A DNA stretch of 64,000 nucleotides. It comes from Patescibacteria group bacterium (lineage in GTDB: Bacteria; Patescibacteriota; Patescibacteriia; XYB2-FULL-38-15). How positions within the stretch are numbered: position 1 is the stretch's first letter; every line of letters starts with the position of its first letter. Both the position numbers and the translations under genes were made by a program. The notes under the pieces were generated by a model. That model searched no databases and was not told the origin of the DNA. It saw only the letters and a program-made list of their open reading frames with translations. Positions 11,769 through 36,388 of the stretch are shown piece after piece. The stretch lies in NCBI GenBank assembly GCA_041650995.1, contig JBAZJZ010000003.1:22662-86661 (forward strand), in the 5' to 3' direction.

Positions 11769-11818
11769 TGACGGTTTTAAGATTTTAAACTAAGTTTATG
11801 ATAGAAGGAGGATCAGCA

Positions 11819-12040: not shown

Positions 12041-12049
12041 GGGACGGAC

Positions 12050-12268: not shown

Positions 12269-12328
12269 CGTGAGAGAGGGGGGGCGAGTGGACCAAGGGT
12301 TCACTCTTTTTTTATTGTAACAAAGATT

Positions 12329-12654
12329 TATTCTATTTTTCTGCCATGAATCATTATCTGTATAAAAGCCGTTTGCTCAAATCCATGGCCAAAAAATGAT
12401 AAGCGGCCGGCCATTTTATAAAAATCGTCTAAATCCACGCCGCGTTCTTTGGCTAGATCTTCGAATTCGTTTATTAATTGCAGAGTAGTAACTTCTCCTT
12501 CAGTTATTGCTTCTAAGACATTGCCGCCGCGTTCTTTGATTATTTTTTTAACTCTTGTTCATGCCGAATGGCAATTTCTTTAGTTAATTCGACACCGCGT
12601 CTTGCATTAGCCATATTATCTTTTTGTTCATGTATTTTTCTCTCACCTTCCATA
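12329..12654 (-). pseudogene. Small ORF interrupted at an A7 homopolymer (possible frameshift or pseudogene, about 105 aa if fused)
   Basis: Minus-strand ORF MEGERKIHEQKDNMANARRGVELTKEIAIRHEQELKK ends with a stop directly after A_AAA_AAA. A -1 frame continues IIKERGGNVLEAITEGEV...GRKIE to 12329. Confidence 0.3.
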
Positions 12655-12665
12655 TTATTTATTAA

Positions 12666-12737
12666 TGCCCTCGGCAGGAATCGAACCTGCACCACCTCCT
12701 CCGGAGGGAGGCGTTGTATCCATTCAACTACGAGGGC
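12666..12737 (-). tRNA. tRNA-Arg (anticodon CCG)
   Basis: Cloverleaf: acceptor GCCCTCG/CGAGGGC, anticodon loop CTCCGGA, T-loop TTCGATT. 72 nt. Confidence 0.85.
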
Positions 12738-14250: not shown

Positions 14251-15204
14251 TTATTTTTTCTTTTTAAATCTTTTGATGCGAATTAATCCGGAGCATGGAA
14301 TAATTTGAATTCCTCGTTTTTCCAGTTCATCTAAAAATAAATTCATACCGAGTGAATCGGATGACATGTGTCCGGCGATGATAACGTTGATGTGCGCCGC
14401 CTCGGCTTCCTTTTTATGTTCTTCGGATTGGTGCATGCCGATAATTGTGCCAACCCCGGCTTGAGCAAGCTTTTCATAAATTTTTGCTGAGGGTTCAGTT
14501 CCGCCAGTGATTTCCGTGACCGCCACTTTGCCACAATGATTTTCCGGATGGCCGGCGAAGAGCCGCGGTCCGGCGCCGAGTTTTATTGCTTCTTTATATT
14601 CAGGAATTTCTTTTAATAATTTTAAAATGTCGCCGACATATTCCGGTTTGGCCGCGGTGATTTTTTTCTTTAGAAAATTGGCTACCAAATTATCGCAAGG
14701 TGTATGGACATTTATATAGCTGATTTTTAAAAGGCGGGCAATATCAATCGGACGATAGTGATTAACAGGATTTACGCCGCGAGCCACTTCCTCAATTCGC
14801 GATTTTTGTACAGCCTCGGCGACGTTTATTGGCACACCATATTGGGCATAAACATCCGCCTGCAAATGCATTACGTCCGCCAAGTCCGTAAGGGCTTTGC
14901 CTCGCGGGTGATGGGCTAAAATTAAATCAGCGCCAAGCCGGTCAGCTAAGAAAATTTCGTCACCTTCCATATCAATGCCGGCGAGGATTTTTTTAATTGG
15001 AGTTTTTCCCGAGTCAAAATGGATTCGGCTATCCAAATATGGATTAGTCAGCGCTTCAAGATCAAACTCTTCTTTTTGTTCTTTATTTAATTTTTCGTAC
15101 TGTTCTTTTTTCCGTTTTAACATTTTCAAAACCGCCGTTTTTCCGCGTAAGTCGGAATTAATGCCCATCTGTATGCTTAAATCGAAAATTTGTTTTAGGT
15201 TCAT
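14251..15204 (-). CDS. Nif3-family dinuclear-metal-centre protein
   Basis: GADLILAHHP and later HxxE blocks. Start taken at the internal ATG (MNLKQIF) so that it does not overlap the ileS stop; the track start is 15240. Confidence 0.6.
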   Translation of the reverse strand: MNLKQIFDLSIQMGINSDLRGKTAVLKMLKRKKEQYEKLNKEQKEEFDLEALTNPYLDSRIHFDSGKTPIKKILAGIDMEGDEIFLADRLGADLILAHHPRGKALTDLADVMHLQADVYAQYGVPINVAEAVQKSRIEEVARGVNPVNHYRPIDIARLLKISYINVHTPCDNLVANFLKKKITAAKPEYVGDILKLLKEIPEYKEAIKLGAGPRLFAGHPENHCGKVAVTEITGGTEPSAKIYEKLAQAGVGTIIGMHQSEEHKKEAEAAHINVIIAGHMSSDSLGMNLFLDELEKRGIQIIPCSGLIRIKRFKKKK

Positions 15205-15205
15205 A

Positions 15206-18046
15206 TTAGATTTTTTTAATGCCAAGCCAGACACCCGCAATTTCTTTTTGTCCTAAAACTTCGGGTCGGCCTTTTTCTAAGTTATTGCTTAGTGTTTCTT
15301 TTTTAATTTTTTCGCCAAATTCTTCTATTGCCTTTTCCGCGGATTCGCTGCCATCATAATAAATGTTAACCCGGTCAGCAATTGAAAGGCCAGCTTCTTT
15401 TCGGAGAGAATTAACCGTCCGGACAATTTCACGAACCAGACCTTGGGCTTTCAATTCCTCGGTCAATTCCGTATCTAACTTATCTTCACCGAATTTTAAT
15501 TCCAAAATATTGAGTTCGTCTTTAATTATTTCAATATATTCCGTCGACAGCTCTTTTGTGAGTATAGTAGAATAAGAGGCGAGCGGCTGTCTGATTTTTA
15601 TTCCGACCGAGGCGCGCGCCGCAAGTCCGGTTTCCACGATTTTTTTAGCCAAGTCCATCTGATCTAATATTTTTTGGTTAACTAATTTTTTTTCAAATTT
15701 TGGCCAAGTTTCAAGATGAACGGAAAGATTTTTTTCCGCGAGTTCCTGGTAAATCTTTTCTGAAACAAAAGGAGTAAACGGAGCGAGTATCCTCCCAAGA
15801 GTAGCAAGGACAAGGTGCAAAGTTGCGAGCGCTTCGTTTTTTTCTTCACCTTCGCTCTTGAATCTATCCCGCGAGCGTCGCAGATACCAGGTTGATAATT
15901 CATTGCTGAAATCCTGCAGACCGCGAGCGGCACCAACTACGTCATATTCATCCAACTTTTTGGTAGTATTTTTTGTCAGGAGATTTAGTTTCGCGAGGAT
16001 CCATTTGTCCAAAATATGGGACGGTTTTATTTTTCCTTCTGGTTTTTTGTCGGCGTATAATTTATAAAAACTGATGATATTAAAGAGAATTAAAAAGAAT
16101 TTTTTGATGACCCCATCAACTTCAACCACGCTAAAATTTTTCGGATCGCCAGGTTGGTTTATCGTGTAAAAAAACCAGCGGGCTGCGTCCGAACCATATT
16201 TATTGATAATATCCCATGGGTCAACAATGTTGCCTTTTGATTTACTCATCTTCTCACCCTTGGCGTCGCGCAGGTGGCCGAGACAGATGACGTTTTTGTA
16301 AGGAGCGCCGTGGCCCAGGAGAGTTGAAACGGCGAGCAGGGTATAAAACCACCCGCGGGTTTGATCAATTGCTTCCGAAATAAATTCGGCCGGGAATTGT
16401 TCACCTTTATCAATTTTTTCTTTATTTTCAAACGGATAATGCCACTGGGCAAAAGGCATGGATCCGGAATCAAACCAGCAGTCCAGCACTTCCGGAGTTC
16501 GTCTCATTTCGCTGCCACATTTTGGACAGGGGAAAATGACAGCGTCGATAAACGGTCGGTGGAGATCTAAAGTTTTCAGATTTTTTCCGCTTAATTTTTC
16601 AAGTTCCTCGACTGAACCCACAAAATGTTTTTCTCCGCAAGCGCATTTCCAAACAGGCAGTGGCGTACCCCAATACCGTTCACGAGTCAGAGCCCAATCC
16701 TTAACTTCCCTGAGCCATTCGCCGAACCGGCCGTCTTTGATATAGTCAGGAACCCAATTAATTGTTTGATTATTTTTTAATAAATTTTTTTTGACTGTCG
16801 GATCAGACATTTTGATAAACCAAGAACGTTTCGCGTAGTAGAGGAGCGGCGTGCCGCAGCGCCAGCAGAAAGGATAATCATGAGTGTAGGCAAGAGTCCG
16901 ATAAAGCAGGTTACGAGATTTAAGATCTTCAATAATTTCCGGCTCAACATTTTTAACAAATTTTCCGGCCCACTTTTTGACACTCGGAAGAAATAATCCA
17001 TTTTCATCAACCGTGTGGACTTCAGGGAGGCCAATTTTTTTACCCAAATTGAAGTCATCTTCGCCATACATGACCGCAGTGTGTACGACGCCGGTGCCGT
17101 CTTCAGTCGAAACAAAATCAGCCGAGGTAACATACCAGGCGCGTTTTTCGCCGGGATCGAGATAGTCCGGGAAAAGCGGTTCATATTCCAAATTGATTAA
17201 GTCCTTACCCCTTAGTTCTTTTTCAATTTCGTACGGCTGCCCTTCGAGCGTCTTCTCAGCCAGATCTTTGGCAACAATTAAATATTCCTCGTTTTGTTTT
17301 ATGATAAGATAATCGATTTTTTCGCCAACCGCTAGGGCCACATTGCCGGGAAGAGTCCATGGTGTAGTTGTCCAAGACAAGATGTAGAGTGGTAATTTTT
17401 CTTTTAAGCCGAGTTTTTGATCCCTAACTAAAAATTTTATGTAGACCGAAGTTTCCAGAATATTTTTATAGCCCTGGGCGACTTCATGTGAAGAAAGGGC
17501 AGTCCCGCAGCGCGGACATTGCGGGACAATTTTATTTCCTTCGTAAAGTAGATCCTTATCCCAGATCTGTTTTAAAATCCACCAAAGAGATTCAATATAA
17601 TAATTTTCATAAGTAATATATGGATGTTCGAGGTCAAGCCAAAAAGCGATGCGCTCGGTCATCTTTTCCCATTCTTCTTTATAATACCAAACGCTTTCTT
17701 TACACTTTTTATTGAAGGCCTCAATGCCGTACTTTTCAATGTCGGGTTTGCCTGAAAATTTTAATTCTTTTTCAATTTGGAGTTCAACCGGCAGACCGTG
17801 AGTGTCCCAGCCCGCTTTGCGACCGACAAAAAATCCTTGCATTGTTTTATAACGACAAACAATATCTTTGAAAGCGCGGGCTTCGACATGGTGCAGACCA
17901 GGTTTTCCATTAGCGGTCGGCGGCCCCTCAAAAAAAATAAAGTTACCTTTAGAACTTTTTTTTGCTAAAGTTTTTTCAAAAATTTTTTTGTCTTTCCAAA
18001 ATTTTAGAATCTCTTCTTCCATCTGGGGAAAATTGATGTTTGCCAT
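15206..18046 (-). CDS. ileS: Isoleucyl-tRNA synthetase
   Basis: PPTANGKPGLHHV (HIGH region), KMSKSKGN, zinc-binding CWRCGTP / CPRCGTA motifs. 946 aa. Confidence 0.9.
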   Translation of the reverse strand: MANINFPQMEEEILKFWKDKKIFEKTLAKKSSKGNFIFFEGPPTANGKPGLHHVEARAFKDIVCRYKTMQGFFVGRKAGWDTHGLPVELQIEKELKFSGKPDIEKYGIEAFNKKCKESVWYYKEEWEKMTERIAFWLDLEHPYITYENYYIESLWWILKQIWDKDLLYEGNKIVPQCPRCGTALSSHEVAQGYKNILETSVYIKFLVRDQKLGLKEKLPLYILSWTTTPWTLPGNVALAVGEKIDYLIIKQNEEYLIVAKDLAEKTLEGQPYEIEKELRGKDLINLEYEPLFPDYLDPGEKRAWYVTSADFVSTEDGTGVVHTAVMYGEDDFNLGKKIGLPEVHTVDENGLFLPSVKKWAGKFVKNVEPEIIEDLKSRNLLYRTLAYTHDYPFCWRCGTPLLYYAKRSWFIKMSDPTVKKNLLKNNQTINWVPDYIKDGRFGEWLREVKDWALTRERYWGTPLPVWKCACGEKHFVGSVEELEKLSGKNLKTLDLHRPFIDAVIFPCPKCGSEMRRTPEVLDCWFDSGSMPFAQWHYPFENKEKIDKGEQFPAEFISEAIDQTRGWFYTLLAVSTLLGHGAPYKNVICLGHLRDAKGEKMSKSKGNIVDPWDIINKYGSDAARWFFYTINQPGDPKNFSVVEVDGVIKKFFLILFNIISFYKLYADKKPEGKIKPSHILDKWILAKLNLLTKNTTKKLDEYDVVGAARGLQDFSNELSTWYLRRSRDRFKSEGEEKNEALATLHLVLATLGRILAPFTPFVSEKIYQELAEKNLSVHLETWPKFEKKLVNQKILDQMDLAKKIVETGLAARASVGIKIRQPLASYSTILTKELSTEYIEIIKDELNILELKFGEDKLDTELTEELKAQGLVREIVRTVNSLRKEAGLSIADRVNIYYDGSESAEKAIEEFGEKIKKETLSNNLEKGRPEVLGQKEIAGVWLGIKKI

Positions 18047-24336: not shown

Positions 24337-24427
24337 TAGATAAACTCCAGCCCCAATTTTGCAACTAATTTAGTTTTGTAGATAATTTTTTTTGCCAAGG
24401 ACGGATCTAAAATTTAAATAAATAAAA

Positions 24428-24456
24428 AAAGAGGGACGCGCGGGGCGATCCCTCTG
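24428..24456 (-). terminator. Rho-independent terminator (minus strand) ending the three-paralog operon
   Basis: The minus strand reads AGAGGGAtcgccccgcgcgTCCCTCT followed by TTTTTTTA. Confidence 0.5.
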
Positions 24457-24483
24457 GAGCGGTTTCACGCTCGGTTGTCGGGA

Positions 24484-24816
24484 TTAGTTTGTCTCTTCCG
24501 GCTGGCAGGCGCCAAGCGGCGTGCCGAAGAGCTTCGTGGCGAACGGCCCGGCCGCGATGATGCTTCGCTGCCTCTTCTCGGCATGGCTCTGGAGAGCCGT
24601 CTCGAGATGAGCCTTGAGGCCGATCTGTTCGTCCGCGGAGACTTGCATCACCGCGGCCAGACTGGCCAAAGCGCCAAGGCAGATCTCCCTGTCTGCCGGC
24701 AGCAGGTCTGTCGTGCCCATCATGATGTCGCCCTTCGCGATGGAAAAGAAGCAGCTCTGGCCGTCTTTTGTGAAAGTGATGACCAGGCTGTGCACCATGA
24801 GTTTGAAAGCACCCAT
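24484..24816 (-). CDS. Small Cys-containing protein, paralog A (110 aa), unknown family
   Basis: RBS GGAAGGAGG 6 nt upstream. Shares KLM..., ...CF(F/L)...KG(D/E)I... and (E/R)(I/T)C(L/F)..L..LA(A/V) blocks with the two ORFs upstream. Confidence 0.5.
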   Translation of the reverse strand: MGAFKLMVHSLVITFTKDGQSCFFSIAKGDIMMGTTDLLPADREICLGALASLAAVMQVSADEQIGLKAHLETALQSHAEKRQRSIIAAGPFATKLFGTPLGACQPEETN

Positions 24817-24845
24817 CTTTCCTCCTTCCTTTTCGCGAGTAGTTG

Positions 24846-25175
24846 CTAGTTCAACTGCTGCGCGGCCTCGGTGCGCAGGATGTCGTTGATGATCTTTTCC
24901 GTGAAGAAGTCGCGTCCGACAGCGACCATCGGTCGCGTAGCTCTCTCGTACTCATCGAAAGCCGCGTTCAGTTGGTCCTTGAGCTTGGCGCATTCGGGCT
25001 CTGGGATTTGCTCCAGGTAAGCCACGAACTTTAGGGCCGCAAGGCAGGATCTCCTGGTCGGCCACATGAAAGGAACAGCCGCGAGCTCGACCCTATCCTT
25101 CAGGATGGCGAACGAGCCGTAACAGCAGCCGACGCCGAAGTTGAATTCCAAGGTGTAGGTTGCCTTGTTCTTCAT
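24846..25175 (-). CDS. Small Cys-containing protein, paralog B (109 aa)
   Basis: RBS GGAGGG upstream. Same architecture, more divergent (GCCYGSFAIL...RRSCLAALKFVAYL). Confidence 0.45.
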   Translation of the reverse strand: MKNKATYTLEFNFGVGCCYGSFAILKDRVELAAVPFMWPTRRSCLAALKFVAYLEQIPEPECAKLKDQLNAAFDEYERATRPMVAVGRDFFTEKIINDILRTEAAQQLN

Positions 25176-25244
25176 TTTTTAACCCTCCCTCTTTGGTCCG
25201 TCCGAGCCTTTCGCGCGGGCGGCCTGATTCCAAGAACCCAAACT

Positions 25245-25499
25245 TTACGGTTGACGTGTCTCGGCGTCGTGTTTTCGGAAAGCTTCCTCCAGCTGTGCAC
25301 GGAGATTATTCTGCTCCTCCTCCGGGACACCGTTTGACACAGCCAGGTTTTCCAGGACGCGAAAGCAGGTTTCCTGGTCTGCTTTGACCGGCGGCGCGAT
25401 CGCAACCAAGATCTCGCCTTTCTGAACGATGAGAAAGCACGTCGAGTCGCCGTTCATCCAACTCACCGCCAAGGCATACCTCATGAGCTTTGCATCCAT
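25245..25499 (-). CDS. Small Cys-containing protein, paralog C (about 84 aa)
   Basis: ATG at 25499 with GGAGGG 9 nt upstream (the track start 25517 is TTG). KLMRYALAVSW...STCFLIVQKGEIL...ETCFRVLENLAV aligns with paralog A. Confidence 0.45.
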   Translation of the reverse strand: MDAKLMRYALAVSWMNGDSTCFLIVQKGEILVAIAPPVKADQETCFRVLENLAVSNGVPEEEQNNLRAQLEEAFRKHDAETRQP

Positions 25500-25552
25500 T
25501 TTCCCCATTCCCTCCAACCCTCGCTCGTTTGAGAGTACATTATTTTATATCA

Positions 25553-25592
25553 TTTTTATCAGAGAATTGTCAAGAGGCAGGGGGTTTACTTT
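25553..25592 (-). promoter_or_regulatory. Sigma70-like promoter (minus strand) for the three-paralog operon
   Basis: The reverse complement reads cTTGACAattctctgataaaaaTGaTATAAA (-35 plus extended -10). Confidence 0.4.
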
Positions 25593-25646
25593 AAAGAGAT
25601 TTTCTGGGATAATTGGGGAAAGATTTGTTAATTTATTTTATAAAAT

Positions 25647-28600
25647 ATGAATGGTCAATTCGTGAAAGAATTTGTCTCCACAATTTCGGAAAAATATAAA
25701 ACCGGTCAGGCAAAAGAGATGGCCTATCGGCCGGCGCTTGAAAAACTATTTCAAGATATTACCGGCTTGAATGTGATAAACGACCCCAAGCGGAGCGAAT
25801 ACGGCGCGCCGGACTTTGTTTTTATAAAAGGTAAGATTGCCGCCGCTTATGCCGAAGCCAAAGACCTGGGTGTGTCGCTTGACGAAACGGAAAAGGGCGA
25901 GCAGATGGCACGTTATTTTGGTTATCCGAATTTAATTTTGACAAATTGTTTGGAGTTTAGGTTTTTTAGAAATGGAGAAAAATATGAAACCGTAAAAATT
26001 GCTGAAATAAAAAATAGCGAAATCGCGTCGGTTGAAGATAGTTTTAATCTTTTGGAAGATACACTCTTGGCATTTATCAAAGAAGCCAAAGAGCCGATTA
26101 AGTCCGGTGTTGTTCTCGCCAAAGTGATGGCCGGCCAGGCGCGGCGCATTCGCGACAATATCAAAAAATATTTAAAAGAGGGCGACGAAAAGAAAAATGA
26201 AAGTTTGATTGCCGTTTATAATACTATTAAAAAATTATTACTCGCCGATTTGGATCACGAAAAATTTGCCGATATGTACGCCCAGACAGTTGTCTACGGT
26301 TTATTCGCGGCTCGCTATCATGATAAAACGGCAGACACTTTTTCTCGTGGAGAGGCGCGCGATTTGGTGCCAAAATCCAACCCATTTTTACGTAAATTTT
26401 TTGACCACATTGCCGGAGAAGATTTTGACGAGCGCGTAGAGTTTATTGTCAATGAACTCTGCGAAGAATTTAAGCACGCCGATATTCAGGCGATCGTGCA
26501 TGATTATTACAAAGTGGAAAAGGACGACAGCCGCGACCCGATTGTTCATTTTTACGAAGATTTTTTGCAGGAGTATGATGCGGCCGAACGAAAAAAGATG
26601 GGAGTTTTTTATACCCCCTTGCCGGTGGTGTGTTTTATTGTTCGCGCGATTGATGATGTTTTGAAAAAAGAATTTGGTCTAAACGGTTTGGCTGATACTT
26701 CCAGAACGGAAATAAAAGGGTTGCAGGGAATGAAGGCAAAACAGTCGGTTCACAAAGTTCAAATACTTGATCCGGCGACCGGTACCGGCACATTTTTAAA
26801 CGAAGTGATTTTGCAAATTAAAAAATCATTTGTCGGACAAGAGGGCCGATGGTCAAGTTATGTTCGTGATGATTTACTGCCGCGGTTGCACGGATTTGAA
26901 ATAATGATGGCGCCGTACACCATCGCCCATCTTAAACTTTCCACGCTTTTGAAAGAAACTGGAGTGGATATAAAAGACGAACGTATAGAAATTTACCTCA
27001 CTAATTCTCTGGAAAAAGCGGATAAATATGATGATACGCTTTTTGCCGGTTTAGGTTTTGATAAAGCTATCACGGAAGAATCTCGTTTAGCCGGAAAAGT
27101 TAAAAATGATTTGCCAATAATGGTAGTGCTCGGCAATCCGCCGTACAATGTCAGCTCACAAAATAAAGGCGAATGGATCGGCGAGTTGATAAAAGATTAT
27201 AAAAAAGATCTGGATGAAAGGAATATACAACCTTTATCCGATGATTATATTAAATTTATCCGCTTCGCCCAATATCTTGTAGACAAAAATGGCGAGGGAA
27301 TTATTGGGATGATTACCAACAATTCTTACATTGACGGAATTACCCATCGCCAAATGCGTAAAAATCTTTTGGAAACTTTTGATAGTATTTATATTTTGGA
27401 TTTGCACGGCAATGCTAAGAAAAAAGAAACCGCGCCCGACGGCAGCGTTGATCAAAATGTATTTAGTATAATGCAAGGCGTGTCCATCGCGCTGTTTGTC
27501 AAAAAAGCAGGCAAGAAAAAATCACTCGGCACGGTTTATCACGCTGAATTATTTGGAAAGCAAAAAGACAAATACGAGGCGTTGAATAATTTTGATTTTG
27601 AAAAGATGAAATGGAATAAGATTGATTGCAAGGATCCGTATTACTTTTTTGTGCCAAAGGATTTTAGAGCAGAGGATGAGTATAAAGAGGGGATCAGCGT
27701 AACTAATTTATTTCAAAAATGGGCTTCGGGAGTTGCTACTGCGAAAGATGACCTGATAATAAAATTTTCAGTCGATGAGATCAAGGAGCTTCGCGCCAGT
27801 TTTAGTAGATATTCAGATCAAGAGATAGCGCAGAAATACCAAGTCGACCAGAAAAAGGTTGTTCAAGTCAGAAAGGATATGGATAACGTTATTGGCGAAT
27901 ACACCCCTATTTTATATCGACCATTTGACACAAGATATACCCTTTACTCTCCGAACAGTGAAGGCGTGTTTCAAAGACCAAGGCCAGAAATAATGAAGCA
28001 CTTGTTAAAAGACAATTTGGCAATTTTAACATGTAAACAACAGACTAGTTTTGATTTTCAGCATGTATTTTTGTCAGCGACAATTACAGATCGATGTGGT
28101 GTTTCATTACAAACCGGTGAAGTCGGATATGTTTTCCCTCTTTATCTTTATGCCGACGACGGATCAAAAATTCCGAATCTCAAAAAAGAAATTGTGGCTG
28201 AAATAGAAAAAATTGTCGGCAAGGTGACGCCGGAAAATGTTTTGGATTATATCTACGCCGTTTTGCACTCGCCGAGTTATCGCGAAAAATATAAAGAATT
28301 TTTGAAGATAGATTTTCCGCGGGTGCCGTATCCGAAAAATGAAAAGCGATTTTTCGCGTTGGCAAAATTGGGCGAGGAGTTGAGGCATCTGCATTTGTTG
28401 GAAAGTTCGAAGGTTGAAAAATTTATTACCACTTATCCCGAGGCAGGGGATAATTTGGTGGAAAAAGTTGTCTATAAAGATGGAAAAGTTTATATTAATG
28501 CTTCGCAATATTTCGGTGGCGTGCCGGAAATCGCCTGGAACTTTTCCATCGGCGGCTATCAGCCGGCGCAGAAATGGTTGAAAGATCGCAAAGGCCGCAA

Positions 28601-28697
28601 ACTCTCCAACGCCGACATTGAACATTATCAAAAAATTGTTGTGGCGTTGGTGGAGACGGATAAACTTATGAGAGGAATTGATAAAGTTAATAAATAA
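25647..28697 (+). CDS. Type IIG restriction enzyme / N6-adenine DNA methyltransferase fusion (MmeI-like)
   Basis: N-terminal PD-(D/E)xK-like GAPDFVF...AEAKD. Gamma-class MTase motif I ILDPATGTGTFL and motif IV VVLGNPPYN. Long C-terminal target-recognition region. 1016 aa. Confidence 0.7.
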   Translation: MNGQFVKEFVSTISEKYKTGQAKEMAYRPALEKLFQDITGLNVINDPKRSEYGAPDFVFIKGKIAAAYAEAKDLGVSLDETEKGEQMARYFGYPNLILTNCLEFRFFRNGEKYETVKIAEIKNSEIASVEDSFNLLEDTLLAFIKEAKEPIKSGVVLAKVMAGQARRIRDNIKKYLKEGDEKKNESLIAVYNTIKKLLLADLDHEKFADMYAQTVVYGLFAARYHDKTADTFSRGEARDLVPKSNPFLRKFFDHIAGEDFDERVEFIVNELCEEFKHADIQAIVHDYYKVEKDDSRDPIVHFYEDFLQEYDAAERKKMGVFYTPLPVVCFIVRAIDDVLKKEFGLNGLADTSRTEIKGLQGMKAKQSVHKVQILDPATGTGTFLNEVILQIKKSFVGQEGRWSSYVRDDLLPRLHGFEIMMAPYTIAHLKLSTLLKETGVDIKDERIEIYLTNSLEKADKYDDTLFAGLGFDKAITEESRLAGKVKNDLPIMVVLGNPPYNVSSQNKGEWIGELIKDYKKDLDERNIQPLSDDYIKFIRFAQYLVDKNGEGIIGMITNNSYIDGITHRQMRKNLLETFDSIYILDLHGNAKKKETAPDGSVDQNVFSIMQGVSIALFVKKAGKKKSLGTVYHAELFGKQKDKYEALNNFDFEKMKWNKIDCKDPYYFFVPKDFRAEDEYKEGISVTNLFQKWASGVATAKDDLIIKFSVDEIKELRASFSRYSDQEIAQKYQVDQKKVVQVRKDMDNVIGEYTPILYRPFDTRYTLYSPNSEGVFQRPRPEIMKHLLKDNLAILTCKQQTSFDFQHVFLSATITDRCGVSLQTGEVGYVFPLYLYADDGSKIPNLKKEIVAEIEKIVGKVTPENVLDYIYAVLHSPSYREKYKEFLKIDFPRVPYPKNEKRFFALAKLGEELRHLHLLESSKVEKFITTYPEAGDNLVEKVVYKDGKVYINASQYFGGVPEIAWNFSIGGYQPAQKWLKDRKGRKLSNADIEHYQKIVVALVETDKLMRGIDKVNK

Positions 28698-28715: not shown

Positions 28716-29549
28716 ATGTGGAGGGTTAAACCGCATACAAGAGAAAAATTGGAATATTTCAGAAAGTATATCGAAGCATATACAACCGCAACTAAAAAAC
28801 TACCTTTGAAATATTATATTGATGCTTTCGCCGGAACAGGAAAGTGTGTCCTCTGCGGTGAAAAATGCAGTTCGGAGGGGTGGTCAAGATGTGAAAAGTG
28901 TGGCAGAGGTAATTTAATTGATGGATCGGCATTGATTTCCTTAAAAATAAAAAATAAATTTAATGGTTATTTATTTGTTGAGCTAAATAAAAAAAGTTTT
29001 AAAATTTTGAATAATTTAGTGATTTCTGAAAAAAGTAATGTCTCTCCATCCATTTCAGTGAAAACACGCAATGATGATTCGAATAAACTACTAAAAGATT
29101 TGTATAAATATATACCTTCTCGGGCTGGCTGTTTGGTATTTCTAGATCCGAAGGGCGCCGAGCTTTATTGGGAAACCGTTGTCTCCTTATCAAAGATTAG
29201 AAAAGTAGACATCCTCATTTTGTATCCTTATGACATGTCTCTTGTAAGATTAATCAGAGATTATCCAAAAAAATTAGATCTTTTTTATGGCTCTACGGAT
29301 TGGTCGAATGTTTATAACTCGAAAGATAATTATAATGAGAAGAGAAGGAAAGAAGCGTTATTAAGTTTTTATAGGGAAAATTTAAAAAAATTAGGATTTG
29401 AGTACGTTGTCTATAAACAGATAAGAAGAAATTTAAGATCTGGCAAGGCTCTTTATCATTTAATTTTGGTGACACATAGCTCCATCGGCAAAAAAATTAT
29501 GGAGAATATCTTTGATAAAGAGATAGATGGGCAGACAAAGCTTTGCTAG
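28716..29549 (+). CDS. Protein with MTase motif-I-like DAFAGTG plus a CxxC-x9-CxxC zinc ribbon; resembles 'three-Cys-motif partner protein (TcmP)' annotations
   Basis: YYIDAFAGTGKCVLCGEKCSSEGWSRCEKCG. 277 aa, about 30-33% GC. The TcmP assignment is from memory of family descriptions, not verified. Confidence 0.4.
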   Translation: MWRVKPHTREKLEYFRKYIEAYTTATKKLPLKYYIDAFAGTGKCVLCGEKCSSEGWSRCEKCGRGNLIDGSALISLKIKNKFNGYLFVELNKKSFKILNNLVISEKSNVSPSISVKTRNDDSNKLLKDLYKYIPSRAGCLVFLDPKGAELYWETVVSLSKIRKVDILILYPYDMSLVRLIRDYPKKLDLFYGSTDWSNVYNSKDNYNEKRRKEALLSFYRENLKKLGFEYVVYKQIRRNLRSGKALYHLILVTHSSIGKKIMENIFDKEIDGQTKLC

Positions 29550-29576
29550 AGTGGTTTTTGTTGTTATAATATAAGT

Positions 29577-30443
29577 ATGAAAAAGGCGGGGGAGATACAA
29601 AGGAAATCGCTTTTGTATAAAAGCGGCGTGGAGTACGCCGACTATTGTATTAATCACGCCGAAGGCTGCTCACACGGTTGCAGGTTTCCTTGCTACGCCA
29701 TGATGATGAAAAAACGGTGCGGTGTGATAAATAGTTATGAAGATTGGATCAAGCCCAAAATAGTTGCGAACGCCTTGGAACTTTTGGATAAAGAAATTCC
29801 AAAATTGAAAGATAAAATTAAAGTTGTTCACCTTTGCTTCACAACTGATCCATTCATGTATAAGCAAAAAGAAATTTCCGATTTGACTTTGAAAATTATA
29901 AAGAGACTGAACGACGATAATATAAAGTGCACGGTACTGACAAAAGGTGTCTACCCCAAGGAATTAATTGACGTTGAAAAATACGGCGGAAATAATGAGT
30001 ATGCAATCACGCTCGTATCTTTGAATGAAGGATTTAAAAAAAGATTTGAGCCGGGAGCCGCGCCGTACGAAGATAGGGTAAAATCTTTAAAATATTTGCA
30101 TGACCATGGATTGAAAACCTGGGTAAGCATGGAGCCGTACCCAACGCCGAACTTAGTGGATCAGGATTTAAAGAAAGTTTTGGCAAAGATTAATTTTGTT
30201 GATAAAATTATTTTTGGGAAATTGAATTATAACATTAAGGTGACAGAATTTCAGGACAATAAAGATTTCTACGATGGTTGCGCAAAAATTGTTATAAATT
30301 TTTGTGAGAAAAATAATATTGGATATCACATTAAATACGGAACTCAGAAAAAAGACAACAAAAAAACGGAAAAAATTTTTCGAAAGGATTTTGTTTCCGA
30401 GAAACAGAGACGGGTTGATTGTTTAGAGCCAGTATATTTATAG
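29577..30443 (+). CDS. Radical-SAM-like protein with a non-canonical Cys cluster (C-x6-C-x3-C-x3-C; SplB/COG1533-like)
   Basis: CINHAEGCSHGCRFPCYAMM near the N-terminus, 288 aa, 28 nt downstream of the previous gene, same low GC. Confidence 0.45.
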   Translation: MKKAGEIQRKSLLYKSGVEYADYCINHAEGCSHGCRFPCYAMMMKKRCGVINSYEDWIKPKIVANALELLDKEIPKLKDKIKVVHLCFTTDPFMYKQKEISDLTLKIIKRLNDDNIKCTVLTKGVYPKELIDVEKYGGNNEYAITLVSLNEGFKKRFEPGAAPYEDRVKSLKYLHDHGLKTWVSMEPYPTPNLVDQDLKKVLAKINFVDKIIFGKLNYNIKVTEFQDNKDFYDGCAKIVINFCEKNNIGYHIKYGTQKKDNKKTEKIFRKDFVSEKQRRVDCLEPVYL

Positions 30444-30457
30444 AAAACAGATTTTTA

Positions 30458-30487
30458 AAAAAGTGGCCCTTGCCACTTTTTCTTTAC
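30458..30487 (+). terminator. Bidirectional hairpin terminator
   Basis: AAGTGGCccttGCCACTT flanked by A- and T-tracts on both sides. Confidence 0.5.
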
Positions 30488-30577: not shown

Positions 30578-30763
30578 CTAAATTGTGGAGTCCACAATAT
30601 CAGCCGACCAAGCAATCAATTTTACTCGACTAGCAGAATTAATAGAGGCTTGCTTTGAGGAGTAAGCCTCACTCGCAGCGACCTTCTCGCCGTTTATGGC
30701 TTGAAGGCGCCATCTATGATATCCAGCAGCGTCTTTGTAAATGACGAATCGAGGATTTGTCAT
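30578..30763 (-). CDS. DUF1508 (YegP/UPF0339) domain protein, 61 aa
   Basis: FVIYKDAAGYHRWRLQAINGEKVAASEAYSSKQASINS matches the YegP repeat consensus (F.lykd..G.fRfrL.a.NGe.ia.SegY.sK). Confidence 0.7.
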   Translation of the reverse strand: MTNPRFVIYKDAAGYHRWRLQAINGEKVAASEAYSSKQASINSASRVKLIAWSADIVDSTI

Positions 30764-33204: not shown

Positions 33205-33798
33205 ATGAAGAAAGGGATCATGCTCGTGACGGCACTCGTTGGCGTGCTGGTTTTGGTCGGTTGGGGTTGCGGGAATTCCGCGGCGCCCACTGACACAAAC
33301 TCGGATATGAATGTTTCCGAGACTTCCTCAGACAGCGTGCCAGAAGTCACGTCCGACACGACCGGAGAAATTCCGGCCGGTTGGACAGAGTACAGGAACG
33401 AGCAGTGGGGGGTGAATTTCATTTACCCCGCGGGCTGGCAGTACCAAGAGTATAGCGAGACAGTTGAAGGCGAAGAGGTGGCGACCCTCGCTTTCTCAGA
33501 CCAGGAGTTGCCAGAAACTTTGCCGCCAGAACCTTTGTTTCCGATCATGGTTTTCCGCGACGCGAGGACCGTAGAAAGCGCAATGTCTGACTACACGGAG
33601 GCTGTTGCTGCGGAAGATATCACGCTCGGGAGTAGAGTAGTAAAAAAGATTATTTACTACTCTAATATTCTCGAACAGAACGACAGGGTCTATCTAATTC
33701 CTCTGCGTGATGGGATTTTGAAACTCTTTGTACCAGATAGTGCGAGTTACGTTTCCACGGCTGAAACCATGATTGCCAACCTTACTGAGACAGAGTAG
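33205..33798 (+). CDS. Putative lipoprotein (GC-rich)
   Basis: RBS AAGGAGA 7 nt upstream. Signal peptide with LVGWGC lipobox-like cysteine. The track ORF starts upstream at 33073. Confidence 0.45.
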   Translation: MKKGIMLVTALVGVLVLVGWGCGNSAAPTDTNSDMNVSETSSDSVPEVTSDTTGEIPAGWTEYRNEQWGVNFIYPAGWQYQEYSETVEGEEVATLAFSDQELPETLPPEPLFPIMVFRDARTVESAMSDYTEAVAAEDITLGSRVVKKIIYYSNILEQNDRVYLIPLRDGILKLFVPDSASYVSTAETMIANLTETE

Positions 33799-33808
33799 GA
33801 GACAGACA

Positions 33809-36388
33809 ATGGAAAAGTTCAAGATGGGCGCGCTGTGCCTGGTGTTGTGGTTTTTGTTGCCGCGCAATTCCGAGGCAGAAGAGTTTCTGTACCTGCCGAT
33901 TACCAGAACGCCGGTCATCACTTCAGGTTTCTGTGGTTACCGGACCGCGTCTGGCGCTTGCCATGGTGGTATTGACTATGACGTTCGCGACGACGGCGAT
34001 GGAATCTTCGCCGCAGCGGATGGCGTAGTTGAGGTTGCAGAAGATGGCTGGCTAAATACCTACCATGGGAGACGGGTGTATGGCAATTACGTACAAATAC
34101 TTCACGACAACGGCTATCGTACCATCTATGCCCACTTTAAAAGAGGCAGCCTGGAAGTCAGTGTGGGCGATGAGGTCAGTGTCGGTCAACTTTTAGGAAT
34201 TGGTGATAACTCTGGTTGGTCAACTGGCTCGCACCTGCACTTCGAAGTCCGCGATTCGAGCGGACGCAAGGTAGATCCTTACGGCGACAGCCCATCATAT
34301 CCAAACTGTGGCGCAAATCACCTTTGGGTAAATTGCCCACCAACAGTGTGGGTTGACGAGGACAGAGATGCCGACACATGGACAGTTGAAGAAGGCGACT
34401 GTGACGACACAAATCCCAACATCTATCCCGGCGCGGTAGAACGCTGCAACGGCGTGGATGACAATTGCGCGGATGGCGTGGACGAGGAACCAGCGGCGAG
34501 TTACGCTTGCCGCGACAGCGTGGACTGCACCATTGACGCCTGCATGGTTGGCGCGCACGTTTGTACCAACCGTCAAAATGACGCGGCTTGCGAAGACGGC
34601 GATCCCTGCACTACAAACCTCTGTATTATTCTGACCGGCTGTCGCGCGATTCCCAAGGACACGGACTTGGACGGTTTCGTGGATATTTCCTGCGGCGGCG
34701 ATGACTGCGACGATTCCAATATGGCCATCCGCCCTGATGCCGCGGAGAAGTGCAATAACATTGATGACGACTGCGACACGGAAACCGACGAAGACTGGCT
34801 GTTACTCGGAACCAGTTGTAATGTTGGCTTTGGCGAATGTCGGCGAAGCGGCATCTGGGTTTGCGAACCTCTGGAGCGCGCCACAGTCTGCGACGCCGAG
34901 TATATTTCTGGCACGCCGGAACTTTGCGACGGCCTGGACAATGATTGCGACACAGAGACTGACGAGGATTGGCCTGAGCTTGGCACGGCCTGCGGAATTT
35001 TCCCCTGCGACGGGACATATGTCTGTTCTCTTGGCGGCTCTGGTTCATACTGCAATGCCAGTCCTGGCATGCCTGAGACTTGCGACGGCCTGGACAATGA
35101 CTGCGATGGTGAAACCGATGAATCTCCGGCGGAATTTTCCTGCGGCGACGGAAATGACTGCACGGTTGATTCGTGCGTGCTTGGCGCATGCCGACATTTT
35201 TCGCGCGATCGCGACGGCGACACTCATGGCGACGACCTCTGTGGTGGTACCGATTGTAACGATCTTAACCCCGCGGTTTGGGAATACGCTTTCAGCGAAT
35301 CGCGGTTGACAAACTCGGCTGGAGATTCTAATTCCCCGGCCGTGGCGTGGACAGGTTCAGAACTTGGAATTGTTTGGGAAGATTGGCGGGCGGGCATTCC
35401 CAACGCGGAAATATACTTCGCCCGGGCAGACACTTCGCTCGCGAGAATTGGCGATGAAGTCAGAGTGACAAATGCCTCATGGGGATCGCGCGAACCGTCT
35501 CTGAGCTGGACTGGCTCAGAGTATGGTGTGGCTTGGTATGACCTTCGGGTTGACTCTCGTTCCGAAGTCTTCTTTACTCGGCTTGATTCTACTGGGCTGG
35601 AAATTGGCGATGATATCCAACTGACAGACCATTTTGCTCTTTCCGGCGCGAGTTATGAACTATCTCTCACCTGGACAGGAAGTGACTATGGCATTGTCTT
35701 TCAGGATAGCCGCCTTAGCTCAATGGATATTTTCTTCGTGCGGCTGGATTCCGGCGGGATAGCGATTGCTCCCGAAGCGCCTGCTATTTCAGACAGCGGA
35801 CCTGAGAGTTTTCCAGTTCTTGTTTGGACAGGGAGTCAATACGGTCTGGCTTACACTGTTTCAATCGACGGCTATCAGCAGATCTTCTTCGCGCGGTTTG
35901 ATTCTTCCGGTGTAAGAACAGGCGCCGTTACGAGAGTTGCCTCGTTTGATTCGGGCGGGAGATTCTACGCTGAAACAGTCGATCTCGTTTGGCAAGGCAG
36001 AGAGTTCGCTTTGGTCTGGACAAAGAACATGGCGAGCGGCGCGAGGGAGGTTTATTTCCGGAGATTGGACGCGGCTGGTGTACCACTTGCTCCTGAGGTT
36101 CTGGTTGCGACTAGTCCGGACATAATCTATCGCGTTGCCATCGCGTGGAATGGGAGAGAATACGGGGTTATTTGGCAAGAAAGTTCTGGCATGTTGGCCA
36201 ATGTTTACTTTGTCCGGCTAGCTGAAGCTGGCAGTAGGCTCGGTACGGTGATCCGGATTTCAAGTACTGCCAGAAATTCGGAAAAGGAAGTCGTGGTTTG
36301 GACCGGTCACGAGTACGTCATGGCCTGGTCGGACAATCGCGACAGCGATTGGGAGATCTACCTTGGTCGCGTCAGTTGCGGCTGGTAG
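33809..36388 (+). CDS. Secreted multidomain protein: M23 (LytM-type) peptidase, Cys-rich MopE-like repeats, and a 7-blade beta-propeller
   Basis: Signal peptide. M23 core HGGIDY...DG...GSHLHFEVRD. Seven copies of the C..DxDCDxxTDE motif. Seven WTGSEYGxxW...(F/Y)FxRLD repeats. 55-60% GC. Confidence 0.65.
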   Translation: MEKFKMGALCLVLWFLLPRNSEAEEFLYLPITRTPVITSGFCGYRTASGACHGGIDYDVRDDGDGIFAAADGVVEVAEDGWLNTYHGRRVYGNYVQILHDNGYRTIYAHFKRGSLEVSVGDEVSVGQLLGIGDNSGWSTGSHLHFEVRDSSGRKVDPYGDSPSYPNCGANHLWVNCPPTVWVDEDRDADTWTVEEGDCDDTNPNIYPGAVERCNGVDDNCADGVDEEPAASYACRDSVDCTIDACMVGAHVCTNRQNDAACEDGDPCTTNLCIILTGCRAIPKDTDLDGFVDISCGGDDCDDSNMAIRPDAAEKCNNIDDDCDTETDEDWLLLGTSCNVGFGECRRSGIWVCEPLERATVCDAEYISGTPELCDGLDNDCDTETDEDWPELGTACGIFPCDGTYVCSLGGSGSYCNASPGMPETCDGLDNDCDGETDESPAEFSCGDGNDCTVDSCVLGACRHFSRDRDGDTHGDDLCGGTDCNDLNPAVWEYAFSESRLTNSAGDSNSPAVAWTGSELGIVWEDWRAGIPNAEIYFARADTSLARIGDEVRVTNASWGSREPSLSWTGSEYGVAWYDLRVDSRSEVFFTRLDSTGLEIGDDIQLTDHFALSGASYELSLTWTGSDYGIVFQDSRLSSMDIFFVRLDSGGIAIAPEAPAISDSGPESFPVLVWTGSQYGLAYTVSIDGYQQIFFARFDSSGVRTGAVTRVASFDSGGRFYAETVDLVWQGREFALVWTKNMASGAREVYFRRLDAAGVPLAPEVLVATSPDIIYRVAIAWNGREYGVIWQESSGMLANVYFVRLAEAGSRLGTVIRISSTARNSEKEVVVWTGHEYVMAWSDNRDSDWEIYLGRVSCGW

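Follow-up and report, generated by a model that had tools for sequence, protein, structure and literature searches.

We analysed a two-gene cassette from a Patescibacteria group bacterium in which TcmP (three-Cys-motif partner protein) is encoded directly upstream of a radical-SAM protein (rSAM). We tentatively propose that the two gene products are the subunits of a single SAM-dependent enzyme that modifies nucleic acids and is carried by mobile DNA as cargo, an interpretation that we hold at somewhat below an even chance. Across genomes the two proteins are nearly always encoded together, are sometimes fused, are mobile and lie near DNA methylases and restriction genes, which together point to a two-part DNA-modifying enzyme. 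To our knowledge, TcmP and its three-Cys partner are a named gene pair that has stayed functionally blank for over a decade.

The cassette and its local context

The window is the whole stretch of DNA analysed, 64,000 nt of contig JBAZJZ010000003.1 (positions 22,662 to 86,661). Its relevant features, in window coordinates, are as follows.

25647 to 28697, + strand: Type IIG restriction-modification enzyme, upstream and co-directional; local context, not part of a conserved module
28716 to 29549, + strand: ORF1, TcmP, 277 aa, pI 9.6, RlmJ-like class I Rossmann methyltransferase fold
29577 to 30443, + strand: ORF2, rSAM, 288 aa, pI 9.1, member of an unnamed clade that is SPL-like (SPL, spore photoproduct lyase) and sister to DUF5131
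29543 to 29570, + strand: promoter-like match TTGCTA-16-TATAAT, 10/12 consensus, with a TG extension, its end lying 6 nt upstream of the rSAM ATG
30455 to 30487, no strand assigned: intrinsic-terminator-like hairpin AAAAAGTGGC-CCTT-GCCACTTTTT, read directly from the sequence, closing the IIG-TcmP-rSAM unit

Database relatives number 691 for ORF1 and more than 7600 clusters at 90% identity for ORF2 (the best 120 being 69-100% identical), which marks both as genuine genes rather than chance ORFs. An earlier, sequence-only reading of this DNA had located both ORFs correctly on the + strand but placed them 28 nt apart; the spacer is 27 nt, and 18 nt separate the IIG gene from TcmP. The same reading gave the cassette a GC content of about 30-33%, far below that of the restriction-modification gene. 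The measured values are 32.7% for TcmP and 36.1% for rSAM, the latter above that range, against 40.1% for the IIG gene and 41.6% for the whole window; the cassette is thus richer in AT, though only moderately so, and the difference is too modest to argue for a recent foreign origin. TcmP and rSAM are both basic, whereas the neighbouring IIG enzyme has a pI of 6.5. The latter comprises a PD-ExK-like N-terminus, an N6 methyltransferase and a Type ISP-type specificity domain, with matches to PF18135 (269.5 bits), PF02384 and PF07669 in Pfam and to REase_MTase_IIG (941.7 bits) in PADLOC.

A consensus scan addressing the terminator question gave no sites in either intergenic spacer of IIG-TcmP-rSAM, the sole sites of this stretch lying inside the rSAM ORF at 29608-29640. 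Because the downstream hairpin is symmetric, the convergent DUF1508 gene could use it as well. The TTGCTA-16-TATAAT match may be an internal promoter that yields a near-leaderless rSAM transcript, to which the sequence points weakly: the region is AT-rich, and matches of this kind occur only a little more often than expected (25 versus 16.2).

TcmP has a methyltransferase-type fold with an invariant motif set

ORF1 matches TIGR04474 (TcmP, tcm_partner) at 151.9 bits in a profile search with a cut-off of 53, its residues 6-268 covering model positions 1-261 of 263. This full-length match bears out a tentative assignment of the sequence-only reading, and an identical protein is already named TcmP by NCBI. 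The succession of DAFAGTG (residues 36-42) and CVLCGEKC...CEKCG, also described there, is confirmed. Three elements of the protein are central.

28821 to 28841, + strand: motif I, D36-A-F-A-G-T-G42, SAM-binding-type DxFxGxG
28845 to 28901, + strand: Cys-rich insertion C44-x2-C47-x3-C51-x7-C59-x2-C62, zinc-ribbon-like, in the window's class of TcmPs of about 280 aa
29139 to 29150, + strand: motif IV-like F-L-D144-P145, with D-P-x-G instead of the D-P-P-Y/F of amino-methyltransferases

ORF1 contains the entire TcmP motif set (K11, L12, D36, F38, G40, G42, G70, S71, N123, D144, P145 and W152), all of which is invariant among 68 TcmPs; D36, F38, G40 and G42 are additionally kept in 37/37 TcmP partners of rSAM loci. 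TcmP has an RlmJ-like Rossmann methyltransferase fold in which all SAM-binding-type motifs are conserved. D144-P145 aligns with the ...LDP of RlmJ and of the RsmD-like protein 2fhp, but methyl transfer by TcmP is not assured, since its motif IV lacks the aromatic residue of DPPY/F.

Only a Patescibacterial subfamily has the Cys-rich insertion; classical TcmPs lack it. The segment from G42 to G70 spans 28-29 aa in the window's class, compared with 7-19 aa in other classes, and the local pLDDT of the insertion in the predicted structure is lower, about 67. We infer that it is a putative metal-binding module. More generally, TcmP classes, among them the Zn-ribbon class of about 280 aa and others of about 315 and about 370 aa, differ in their Zn-ribbon or in C-terminal modules of 40-134 aa, while the catalytic-type motifs stay constant. 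The long C-terminal extensions give sub-threshold hints of GMT-wHTH (20.7-23.4 versus 27 bits).

The nearest folds of TcmP are RlmJ, Trm1 and RsmD-like proteins, all of them enzymes that methylate RNA rather than DNA, an observation that speaks against a DNA target. In sequence, TcmP resembles RlmJ (the 23S rRNA m6A2030 methyltransferase; PDB 6QE5) and the RlmJ homologue LPL1258 (2OO3) only marginally (E about 0.09). Moreover, TcmP has D-P-x-G where RlmJ has D-P-P-Y, and RlmJ is a stand-alone housekeeping RNA enzyme with no radical-SAM partner. An identity as an RlmJ-type RNA m6A methyltransferase was rejected on sequence similarity and on the D-P-P-Y motif.

The radical-SAM protein carries a proline-expanded cysteine motif

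ORF2 matches PF04055 (radical SAM) at 58.7 bits, above the gathering threshold, and has an SPL-like fold; it is a radical-SAM enzyme with a partial TIM barrel and is structurally most closely related to spore photoproduct lyase. Two positions need to be distinguished.

29664 to 29699, + strand: signature G30-C31-S-H33-G-C35-R-F-P38-C39-Y-A41, containing the predicted [4Fe-4S] ligand triad C-x3-C-x3-C
29646 to 29648, + strand: C24, taken earlier as the first Cys of a four-Cys cluster; outside the conserved motif

The family motif is G-C-x-H-G-C-x-[YF]-P-C-Y-A, and C31, H33, C35 and C39 are invariant among ORF2 homologs. Among 96 readable representatives clustered at 50%, 80 have CX3CX3C and 16 have CX3CX2C; the motif His is present in 95/95 representatives and the inserted Pro in 79/79 CX3CX3C sequences. 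In the HMMER alignment to the CMGHCHY-CY of SPL the gap falls at this Pro, so the spacing departs from the canonical C-x3-C-x2-C by the insertion of one proline. In the literature, 'CX3CX3C' appears together with radical SAM in a passing mention of NifB in a review; we take NifB to have the canonical motif, so that it presumably sets no precedent.

The sequence-only reading had described a four-Cys cluster, C-x6-C-x3-C-x3-C. The literal string CINHAEGCSHGCRFPCY is indeed present in ORF2, but only its last three Cys are conserved. The position of C24 is T in 39, A in 28, C in 13, S in 8 and another residue in 7 of 95 representatives, and Ser in 4/120 close homologs. With the first Cys kept in only 13/95 representatives, we rejected the four-Cys cluster; profile alignment also ruled out C24 as the equivalent of the first Cys of DUF5131. 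Conservation in homologs, which that reading had proposed to check, holds for the triad. The two outcomes it had named as counting against it, no match to the TcmP/three-Cys families and unconserved Cys, were both looked for and neither was found.

Its suggestion of a TIGR04471-type model failed: ORF2 scores 47.8 bits against TIGR04470 (cut-off 410) and does not match TIGR04471 at E <= 0.01, so membership in the Radical SAM mobile pair (TIGR04470/TIGR04471) was rejected. Membership in DUF5131 (PF07505) was likewise rejected (19.4 versus 28.9 bits). Homology to DUF5131 is nonetheless detected by HHalign (97.7%, about 200 columns), with the three Cys aligned one-to-one and indels in both spacers. 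The idea of a radical-SAM-like partner in a TcmP pair is thus upheld by the PF04055 match and the homology to DUF5131, but the protein falls outside DUF5131 itself. These profile comparisons place ORF2 in an unnamed clade that is sister to DUF5131.

The nearest named NCBIfam families are PA0069 and Rv2578c, at about 50 bits, and homologs of ORF2 carry the JGI label 'DNA repair photolyase'. No SPL-specific model is found among the NCBIfam matches of ORF2 at E <= 0.01. SPL (SplB; PDB 4FHC) and rSAM share about 14% identity, a likeness of fold and remote sequence similarity only. Furthermore, rSAM has 288 aa versus the 340 aa of SPL, an extra Pro in its Cys motif and a need for a partner protein, whereas SPL has none. 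The H-donor Cys of SPL (C140/C141) lacks a conserved equivalent in rSAM: C140 aligns with F88, beside the C/S-variable C87, which also speaks against a DNA reading.

The two proteins travel together and diverge separately

Among 55 informative CX3CX3C loci, 44 have a same-strand TcmP directly upstream and 3 are fusions (47/55), and 61 of the 66 informative viral contigs are paired. The two genes thus lie side by side and in the same direction in about 85-92% of the informative loci. Divergent TcmP partners all score above the TIGR04474 cut-off (101-230 bits). Fusions, with TcmP N-terminal and rSAM C-terminal, occur in several lineages at 586-634 aa, for example at L050 (positions 7068-8834), and keep the gene order; one exceeds the TcmP cut-off, and the 745-aa N-terminus of another (P0242) gave no Pfam or TcmP matches.

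Sister proteins with the canonical CX3CX2C motif lack TcmP and lie in phage DNA-methylase clusters; one is encoded in a phage operon with a C5 and an N6/N4 methyltransferase. TcmP pairing is found at 47/55 loci with the Pro insertion versus 0/4 with the canonical motif (Fisher p = 0.001, phylogenetically uncorrected).

The partners differ greatly in conservation. Median pairwise identity is 67% for rSAM and 23% for TcmP, with a Spearman correlation of 0.10 between them. A strongly conserved rSAM is combined with a hypervariable TcmP that is exchanged independently, and the two do not co-diverge.

The closest named arrangement is the TcmP + DUF5131 pair (TIGR04474 + PF07505), PADLOC candidate PDC-M41, for which our literature search found no publication. 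Full TIGR04474 membership, tight adjacency, occurrence in prophages and a vicinity of DNA methylases and restriction genes are common to both. In contrast, DUF5131 has the spacing GC-x6-C-x2-CYA, and bona fide DUF5131 partners score 310-341 bits against PF07505, where ORF2 passes PF04055 instead. Gene order is fixed with TcmP first in the ORF2 clade, whereas classical TcmP/DUF5131 pairs occur in either order or convergently. The ORF2 clade is also centred on Patescibacteria and has fused forms, and the Cys-rich insertion of the window's TcmP class sets it apart from the classical pair. In PADLOC, TcmP matches PDC-M41A (121 bits) and rSAM matches no model.

The pair occupies heterogeneous loci on mobile DNA

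The pair is found in Patescibacterial genomes, in other phyla and on many prophage or viral contigs. Copies that are 56-83% identical occur in bins of many phyla, and 71 viral or prophage contigs, found by a back-translated motif search, carry clade members. In the cultured-phage database the pair is almost absent, with one unannotated faecal contig at 53% identity. Neighbourhoods are heterogeneous and the position varies even between close relatives: the window's closest relatives have a Type II-like methyltransferase (L066) or ftsZ/PIF1 (L067/L068) as neighbours. N6/N4 DNA methylases, restriction enzymes, recombinases and repressor modules are most often found next to the pair; on viral contigs, N6_N4 DNA methylases lead the neighbour families (13/123). 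All-vs-all clustering of 235 neighbours gave no general conserved third gene, the largest cluster (8 of the 235) being a small N6/N4 DNA methylase. Prophage copies sit in the integrase/ImmA-HTH repressor-proximal cargo region, some loci lie amid housekeeping genes (ftsZ, MreB, tRNA synthetases), and the neighbourhood survey found no recurrent SOS or repair genes near the pair.

The sequence-only reading had described the pair as often lying near restriction systems. Restriction genes do occur near it, but at a minority of loci: at least 16/58, a modest raw count uncorrected for background, the majority of loci having none. It had also taken the Type IIG adjacency to suggest a DNA-modification or defence accessory module. 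This remains the best reading of the pair, but the adjacency itself is not conserved. An IIG homolog lies beside the pair at only 3/59 loci: the window, L021, where the order IIG, TcmP, rSAM is the same, and L027, a locus with two copies. Eco57I-type IIG genes lie upstream at L016 and L048 (2-3 additional loci); large upstream genes at other loci encode HsdR, ResIII, an SF1 helicase or a P-type ATPase.

Discussion

Our searches of the literature gave no biochemistry or function for TcmP, DUF5131 or ORF2's radical-SAM clade beyond mentions in annotation tables. In the enzyme that we propose, TcmP would be the target-recognition subunit, binding SAM and a flipped-out nucleotide, with its variable Zn-ribbon or C-terminal module providing sequence or context specificity. 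TcmP would hand the base to the rSAM subunit, which is predicted to cleave SAM reductively on the [4Fe-4S] cluster and to abstract a hydrogen atom with the resulting 5'-deoxyadenosyl radical. As a result, a non-canonical modification would be introduced into, or remodelled on, a DNA base; a methyl group or another group derived from SAM may come from TcmP. In restriction/anti-restriction conflicts, such a modification could mark as self, or protect, the DNA of the element that carries it or of the host. Stand-alone carriage agrees with a modification enzyme, since most loci lack an obvious cognate protective or toxic partner. In the window, the pair would be co-transcribed with the Type IIG enzyme and act independently of it.

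The searched literature describes SPL and phage M6 gp53, which isomerises a thymidine hypermodification, as radical-SAM enzymes that act on DNA (PMC8989533). The latter is the best functional precedent, as an SPL-like radical-SAM protein on mobile DNA engaged in post-replicative base modification and restriction evasion. Unlike ORF2, gp53 has a canonical motif (CTVGCAFC), and a search of the phage database detected no sequence relationship between them. Its partners on 5-hmdU are a kinase, aGPT-Pplase and a PLP enzyme, none of which is linked to the TcmP-rSAM pair. Further indications of a DNA substrate are the LexA/SOS-regulated SplB-like relatives in COG1533, the basic pI of both cassette proteins, the prominence of N6/N4 DNA methylases among the neighbours and the canonical-motif sister encoded in a phage methyltransferase operon.

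A more specific form of our proposal, which we consider unlikely as a whole, is a modular, sequence-specific DNA-modification system based on radical chemistry, with rSAM as the engine and TcmPs as swappable specificity and base-flipping subunits. The TcmP add-ons (Zn-ribbon, wHTH-like, other) would be exchanged like HsdS or TRD in restriction-modification systems, and the extra Pro of the cluster motif would adapt rSAM to its TcmP partner. The product would be a new C-modified base, for example a C-methylated or rearranged one, in the DNA of cells and prophages. This modification could be widespread in Patescibacteria and give epigenetic protection in restriction conflicts.

The integrase/repressor cargo region of prophages is the usual site of lysogen-expressed defences. 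The location of the prophage copies there and the PADLOC candidate status suit a defence effector equally well. The pair could be a stand-alone anti-phage defence and a variant of PDC-M41, in which TcmP senses or binds invading nucleic acid and rSAM is the effector, acting through radical damage or alteration of foreign DNA or RNA, or through an antiviral small molecule like those of viperins. We judge this rather improbable, though several lines of evidence argue for it: the match of TcmP to PDC-M41A, the restriction genes around some of the loci, and a hypervariable TcmP beside a conserved rSAM, which suggests an arms race. Additionally, an S. meliloti TcmP gene adjoins the Hna defence gene and is co-upregulated with it (PMC12445080), and radical-SAM defence systems are known (Ophion, bioRxiv 10.1101/2025.09.30.679545).

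A DNA-repair enzyme, in which the SPL-like rSAM reverses or excises a base lesion or adduct after TcmP has recognised and flipped the damaged nucleotide, appears improbable. SPL is both the closest solved structure and the closest PDB sequence to rSAM, and the label 'DNA repair photolyase' agrees with this idea. The nearest named families, PA0069 and Rv2578c, belong to COG1533 ('SplB-like'), whose members are under LexA/SOS control in many phyla and are associated with DNA damage (PMC4951493, PMC8565304). They share the G-C-x-H-G-C-x-Y-C motif type with ORF2. However, they have the canonical C-x3-C-x2-C, are solo SOS-controlled genes without TcmP, and are matched by ORF2 at 50 bits, far below cut-offs of 360-430 bits. 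Repair does not predict a hypervariable, module-swapping partner, and neither the patchy cross-phylum distribution, the occurrence on viral contigs next to genes for DNA methylases and restriction endonucleases, nor the two copies at L027 would be expected of it. The lack of recurrent SOS/repair neighbours in our survey and of a conserved SPL catalytic Cys also count against it.

We regard as very unlikely a housekeeping rRNA or tRNA modification in Patescibacteria, with TcmP acting like RlmJ/Trm1 and rSAM like RlmN/Cfr/MiaB/TYW1. The RNA methyltransferase folds nearest to TcmP favour it, as do the many radical-SAM enzymes that modify RNA, structural matches of rSAM among them, the loci amid housekeeping genes and a conservation of rSAM at a level typical of core genes. 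Yet a fixed RNA target is incompatible with subunits that do not co-diverge. The sporadic occurrence across unrelated phyla, the 71 viral or prophage contigs, the variable position between close relatives and neighbours that are mostly DNA methylases, recombinases and restriction genes argue further against it. Finally, a dedicated accessory that extends or alters the modification or restriction activity of the adjacent Type IIG enzyme is most unlikely: the co-directional genes with short spacers and a terminator only after rSAM, the same order at L021 and the Eco57I-type loci are in its favour, but synteny largely refutes it, since the IIG linkage is not conserved (2/58 other loci), the closest relatives and other loci have different neighbours or no restriction gene, and the IIG enzyme has nuclease, methylase and specificity domains of its own.

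In summary, the pair in the window falls into an unnamed and very large clade in which the partner of TcmP is a recognisable SPL-like radical-SAM protein with a distinctive C-x3-C-x3-C motif. The pairing, the fusions, the conserved rSAM beside a hypervariable TcmP and the neighbourhoods lead to a concrete model that can be tested: a two-subunit DNA-modifying enzyme whose specificity subunit can be swapped. Some pair-bearing viral contigs, for example the prophage loci IMG/VR UViG 642791610_000009 and 2523231056_000002, have identifiers like those of isolate genomes, so experiments may be feasible. If the model is true, restriction/anti-restriction biology would gain a chemically new class of DNA modification, and an abundant gene pair of Patescibacteria would be explained.

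Locus organization

The pair examined here comprises the three-Cys-motif partner protein gene (TcmP, ORF1) and a radical-SAM protein gene (rSAM, ORF2), behind a Type IIG restriction-modification enzyme gene.

Features of the cassette region in the window (coordinates, strand, description)
24484-24816, 24846-25175 and 25245-25517, -, three tandem paralogous small ORFs in a GC-rich block, 90-110 aa
25647-28697, +, Type IIG gene, ORF of 1016 aa
28716-29549, +, ORF1, TcmP, 277 aa
29577-30443, +, ORF2, rSAM, 288 aa
30455-30487, 3' of the rSAM gene, symmetric terminator-like hairpin with flanking A-run and T-run (direct sequence reading)
30578-30763, -, DUF1508 gene (PF07411 match, 41.5 bits), 61 aa, convergent with the rSAM gene

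The Type IIG, TcmP and rSAM genes are co-directional, with spacers of 18 nt and 27 nt. Because neither spacer contains a terminator-like site in a consensus scan and a hairpin follows the rSAM gene, the three look like one transcription unit at the sequence level; a promoter-like match ending 6 nt before the rSAM ATG is weak evidence in such AT-rich DNA. The symmetry of the hairpin (A-run, stem, T-run) could allow it to terminate the DUF1508 gene as well. The sequence-only reading had described an AT-rich cassette; the lower GC content is genuine (TcmP 32.7%, rSAM 36.1%), but the contrast with the Type IIG gene (40.1%) and the whole window (41.6%) is only moderate. The motifs it quoted, DAFAGTG, the Cys-rich CVLCGEKC...CEKCG and CINHAEGCSHGCRFPCY, are all present in the window ORFs.

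Upstream, a GC-rich block at 24400-25600 (55% vs ~40% on both flanks) adjoins the Type IIG gene. Its three small ORFs share 24-36% mutual identity and two conserved Cys, and matched no Pfam family; the block may be a distinct inserted piece of foreign DNA, or the ORFs a family of small proteins. The gene at 33773-36388 (+) encodes an 871-aa protein that is rich in Cys and combines an M23 peptidase domain at the N-terminus with metal-binding repeats of the MopE type; at 52-57% GC, the stretch around it differs in composition from the cassette region.

Identity of the two proteins

ORF1 belongs to a known, named family. It matched NCBIfam TIGR04474 over the entire model (151.9 bits, cut-off 53), bearing out the initial assignment to TcmP, and the NCBI annotation of the identical protein already reads TcmP. 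It also matched PDC-M41A, a PADLOC candidate, and no Pfam family. Together with this match, the residues invariant in a 68-TcmP alignment (K11-L12, D36-x-F-x-G-x-G42, G70-S71, N123, D144-P145, W152) and a confident AlphaFold model (pLDDT 91.4, pTM 0.90) identify TcmP as a protein with the class I Rossmann methyltransferase fold, of the type that methylates nucleic-acid bases. In motif IV it has D-P-x-G, not D-P-P-Y/F, and the Cys-rich segment, inserted behind motif I, is seen only in the window's Patescibacterial subfamily.

ORF2 exceeded the threshold for Pfam Radical_SAM (58.7 bits), and its predicted structure is confident (pLDDT 92.2). Membership in spore photoproduct lyase (SPL), in DUF5131 (PF07505, the classical three-Cys partner of TcmP; 19.4 bits, threshold 28.9) and in the PA0069, Rv2578c and rSAM mobile-pair-B families (~50 bits, cut-offs 360-430) was rejected. 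Neither Pfam nor NCBIfam holds a specific model for the ORF2 clade; RadicalSAM.org places SPL and DUF5131 in adjoining sub-clusters of one megacluster.

The literal string C-x6-C-x3-C-x3-C, first read as a four-Cys cluster, occurs in 114/120 close homologs, with the first Cys replaced by Ser in 4. An exhaustive search of 50%-identity representatives yielded the family signature G-C-x-H-G-C-x-[YF]-P-C-Y-A. Its C-x3-C-x3-C spacing is conserved in 80/96 readable representatives, the other 16, about 38-53% identical, having the canonical C-x3-C-x2-C without Pro. The inserted residue is Pro in 79/79 and the motif His is kept in 95/95, whereas the supposed first Cys is Cys in just 13/95. In a HMMER alignment to the SPL motif CMGHCHY-CY the gap falls exactly at the inserted Pro, and HHalign showed the family to be homologous to DUF5131, whose classical spacing is C-x6-C-x2-C, across 199 columns (probability 97.7%, E 1.6e-12), each of the three Cys facing its counterpart. 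We therefore rejected the four-Cys site; the alignments identify a three-Cys radical-SAM motif with a one-residue insertion that defines a large clade. D91, K123, R167 and P187 are also invariant, and C243 nearly so. Four representatives (P0292, P0301, P0327, P0340) align to the profile as two or three segments with ~100-aa insertions between them, which could be inteins or inserted domains; NCBIfam includes an intein-containing Rv2578c family.

Pairing and divergence of the subunits

We sampled 58 genome loci encoding rSAM relatives (56-83% identical), mostly Patescibacteria, with some bins labelled Actinomycetota, Planctomycetota, Nanoarchaeota, Clostridia and others. Most have a same-strand TcmP-family ORF directly upstream of the rSAM gene, and the most divergent partners still scored 101-230 bits, above the curated TIGR04474 cut-off. 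Over all loci, of 55 C-x3-C-x3-C genes with enough upstream sequence, 44 have a TcmP gene as partner and 3 are fused to one. All four sampled canonical-motif sisters lack a TcmP and lie in phage or integrative-element contexts, one packed behind C5 and N6/N4 DNA methylases with PAPS reductase and RusA nearby. The link between the Pro insertion and TcmP pairing (47/55 vs 0/4, Fisher p = 0.001, kinship ignored) is only suggestive, since the sequences are related. Fusions of 586-634 aa (P0243, P0248, L027, L049, L050) keep the TcmP-N/rSAM-C order, and one scores above the TcmP model cut-off. An IMG/VR search by back-translated motif returned 71 viral contigs, every one encoding a true family member (48-70% identical to the window protein), with a same-strand TcmP directly upstream in 61/66 informative contigs. 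In contrast, classical TcmPs of ordinary bacterial genomes and two cultured phages have a DUF5131 partner in either or convergent orientation.

Across 37 paired loci, median pairwise identity is 67% for rSAM and 23% for TcmP, and the divergences are essentially uncorrelated (Spearman 0.10). Relative to the window, one locus (L048) is 77% identical in rSAM and 27% in TcmP, another (L035) 62% and 59%. The SAM-binding-type motifs are common to all TcmPs, and what varies is the add-on modules: a Zn-ribbon-like insertion in the window's class and, in others, an extended C-terminus (about 40 aa or 100-134 aa longer) with sub-threshold winged-HTH hints. Such sequence divergence is typical of a conserved catalytic subunit that works with interchangeable recognition subunits.

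Several single loci add variants. One contig (L027) carries two copies, at 6864-8840 (+) and 11453-13219 (-), a split pair and a fused 588-aa TcmP-rSAM, near a homolog of the window's Type IIG enzyme (14973-16811). P0242 (1002 aa; L075 3891-6899, L076 1102-4110) joins a C-x3-C-x3-C rSAM domain to a 745-aa N-terminal region without Pfam or TcmP match, which may be an alternative partner domain; it adjoins a nucleotidyltransferase and a transposase. In five loci (L004, L015, L026, L027, L051) the rSAMs are 68-80% identical to the window's but the bins are Rhizobiaceae, Methanosarcinales, Gammaproteobacteria or Actinomycetota, which points to a very recent transfer between phyla or to short contigs placed in the wrong bin.

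Genomic context

In the genome loci, whose 118 largest neighbours spread over 144 Pfam families, no further gene generally accompanies the pair; the window's closest relatives are flanked by other genes, and other large upstream genes encode Eco57I-type IIG enzymes, HsdR, ResIII and SF1 helicases and a P-type ATPase. The Type IIG homolog recurs in L021 and L027 only, so its placement is no conserved link, and a dedicated Type IIG accessory is very improbable. The suggested proximity to restriction systems holds for a minority of loci, at least 16/58 having a restriction/modification-type gene in the flanks.

The largest neighbour cluster in genome loci is a small N6/N4 DNA methylase. The picture is sharper in viral contigs, where N6_N4_Mtase leads (13/123), followed by serine recombinases, ImmA/IrrE-HTH repressor modules, MvaI/BcnI endonucleases, ResIII, and Dam and C5 methylases; there the pair occupies the integrase-proximal cargo region of prophages. 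One viral contig (alignment A6) has an S-adenosylmethionine synthetase beside the pair, of interest since both subunits are predicted to use SAM. Gordonia phage BaxterFox carries a TcmP-DUF5131 pair between immunity repressor and integrase. Its full-length DUF5131 gene is unannotated (L059 4457-5485, - strand of the locus, about NC_031226.1 31921-32949; 341.5 bits, E 3.5e-102), opposite to annotated gp39-gp41 and convergent with TcmP (gp42); the RefSeq annotation at gp39-gp41 is probably wrong.

Proposed function

A DNA-modification enzyme is our leading, if tentative, reading of the pair. What the data show are the folds, the motifs, the obligate adjacency and fusions, the unequal conservation, the mobility and the gene neighbourhood; the mechanism built on them is an inference. 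TcmP and rSAM would together form one enzyme: TcmP would bind SAM and recognize and flip the nucleotide, and rSAM, with a [4Fe-4S] cluster on C31/C35/C39, would generate a 5'-deoxyadenosyl radical to modify the presented base. By analogy, DNA is the more likely substrate, given that it is the target of both SPL-like enzymes with known substrates, SPL and phage M6 gp53 (PMC8989533), that the COG1533 families closest to ORF2 in sequence are under SOS regulation, that both proteins are basic (the adjacent Type IIG enzyme is not), and that DNA methylase and restriction genes are neighbours. A defence effector is a distinctly weaker candidate: the PADLOC candidate match, the prophage cargo position and the hypervariable TcmP speak for it, but stand-alone carriage is easier to reconcile with a modification enzyme than with a restriction-like effector. 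A repair enzyme is unlikely, and an RNA-modification enzyme slightly more so.

No study on the function of a TcmP, a DUF5131 protein or an ORF2-clade member turned up in the searched literature. With ORF1 in a named family and ORF2 outside the described ones, the pair is of a known though uncharacterised kind, in a version that differs. As far as our searches show, the clade definition, the fusions, the subunits without co-divergence and the prophage/DNA-methylase context are newly described here.
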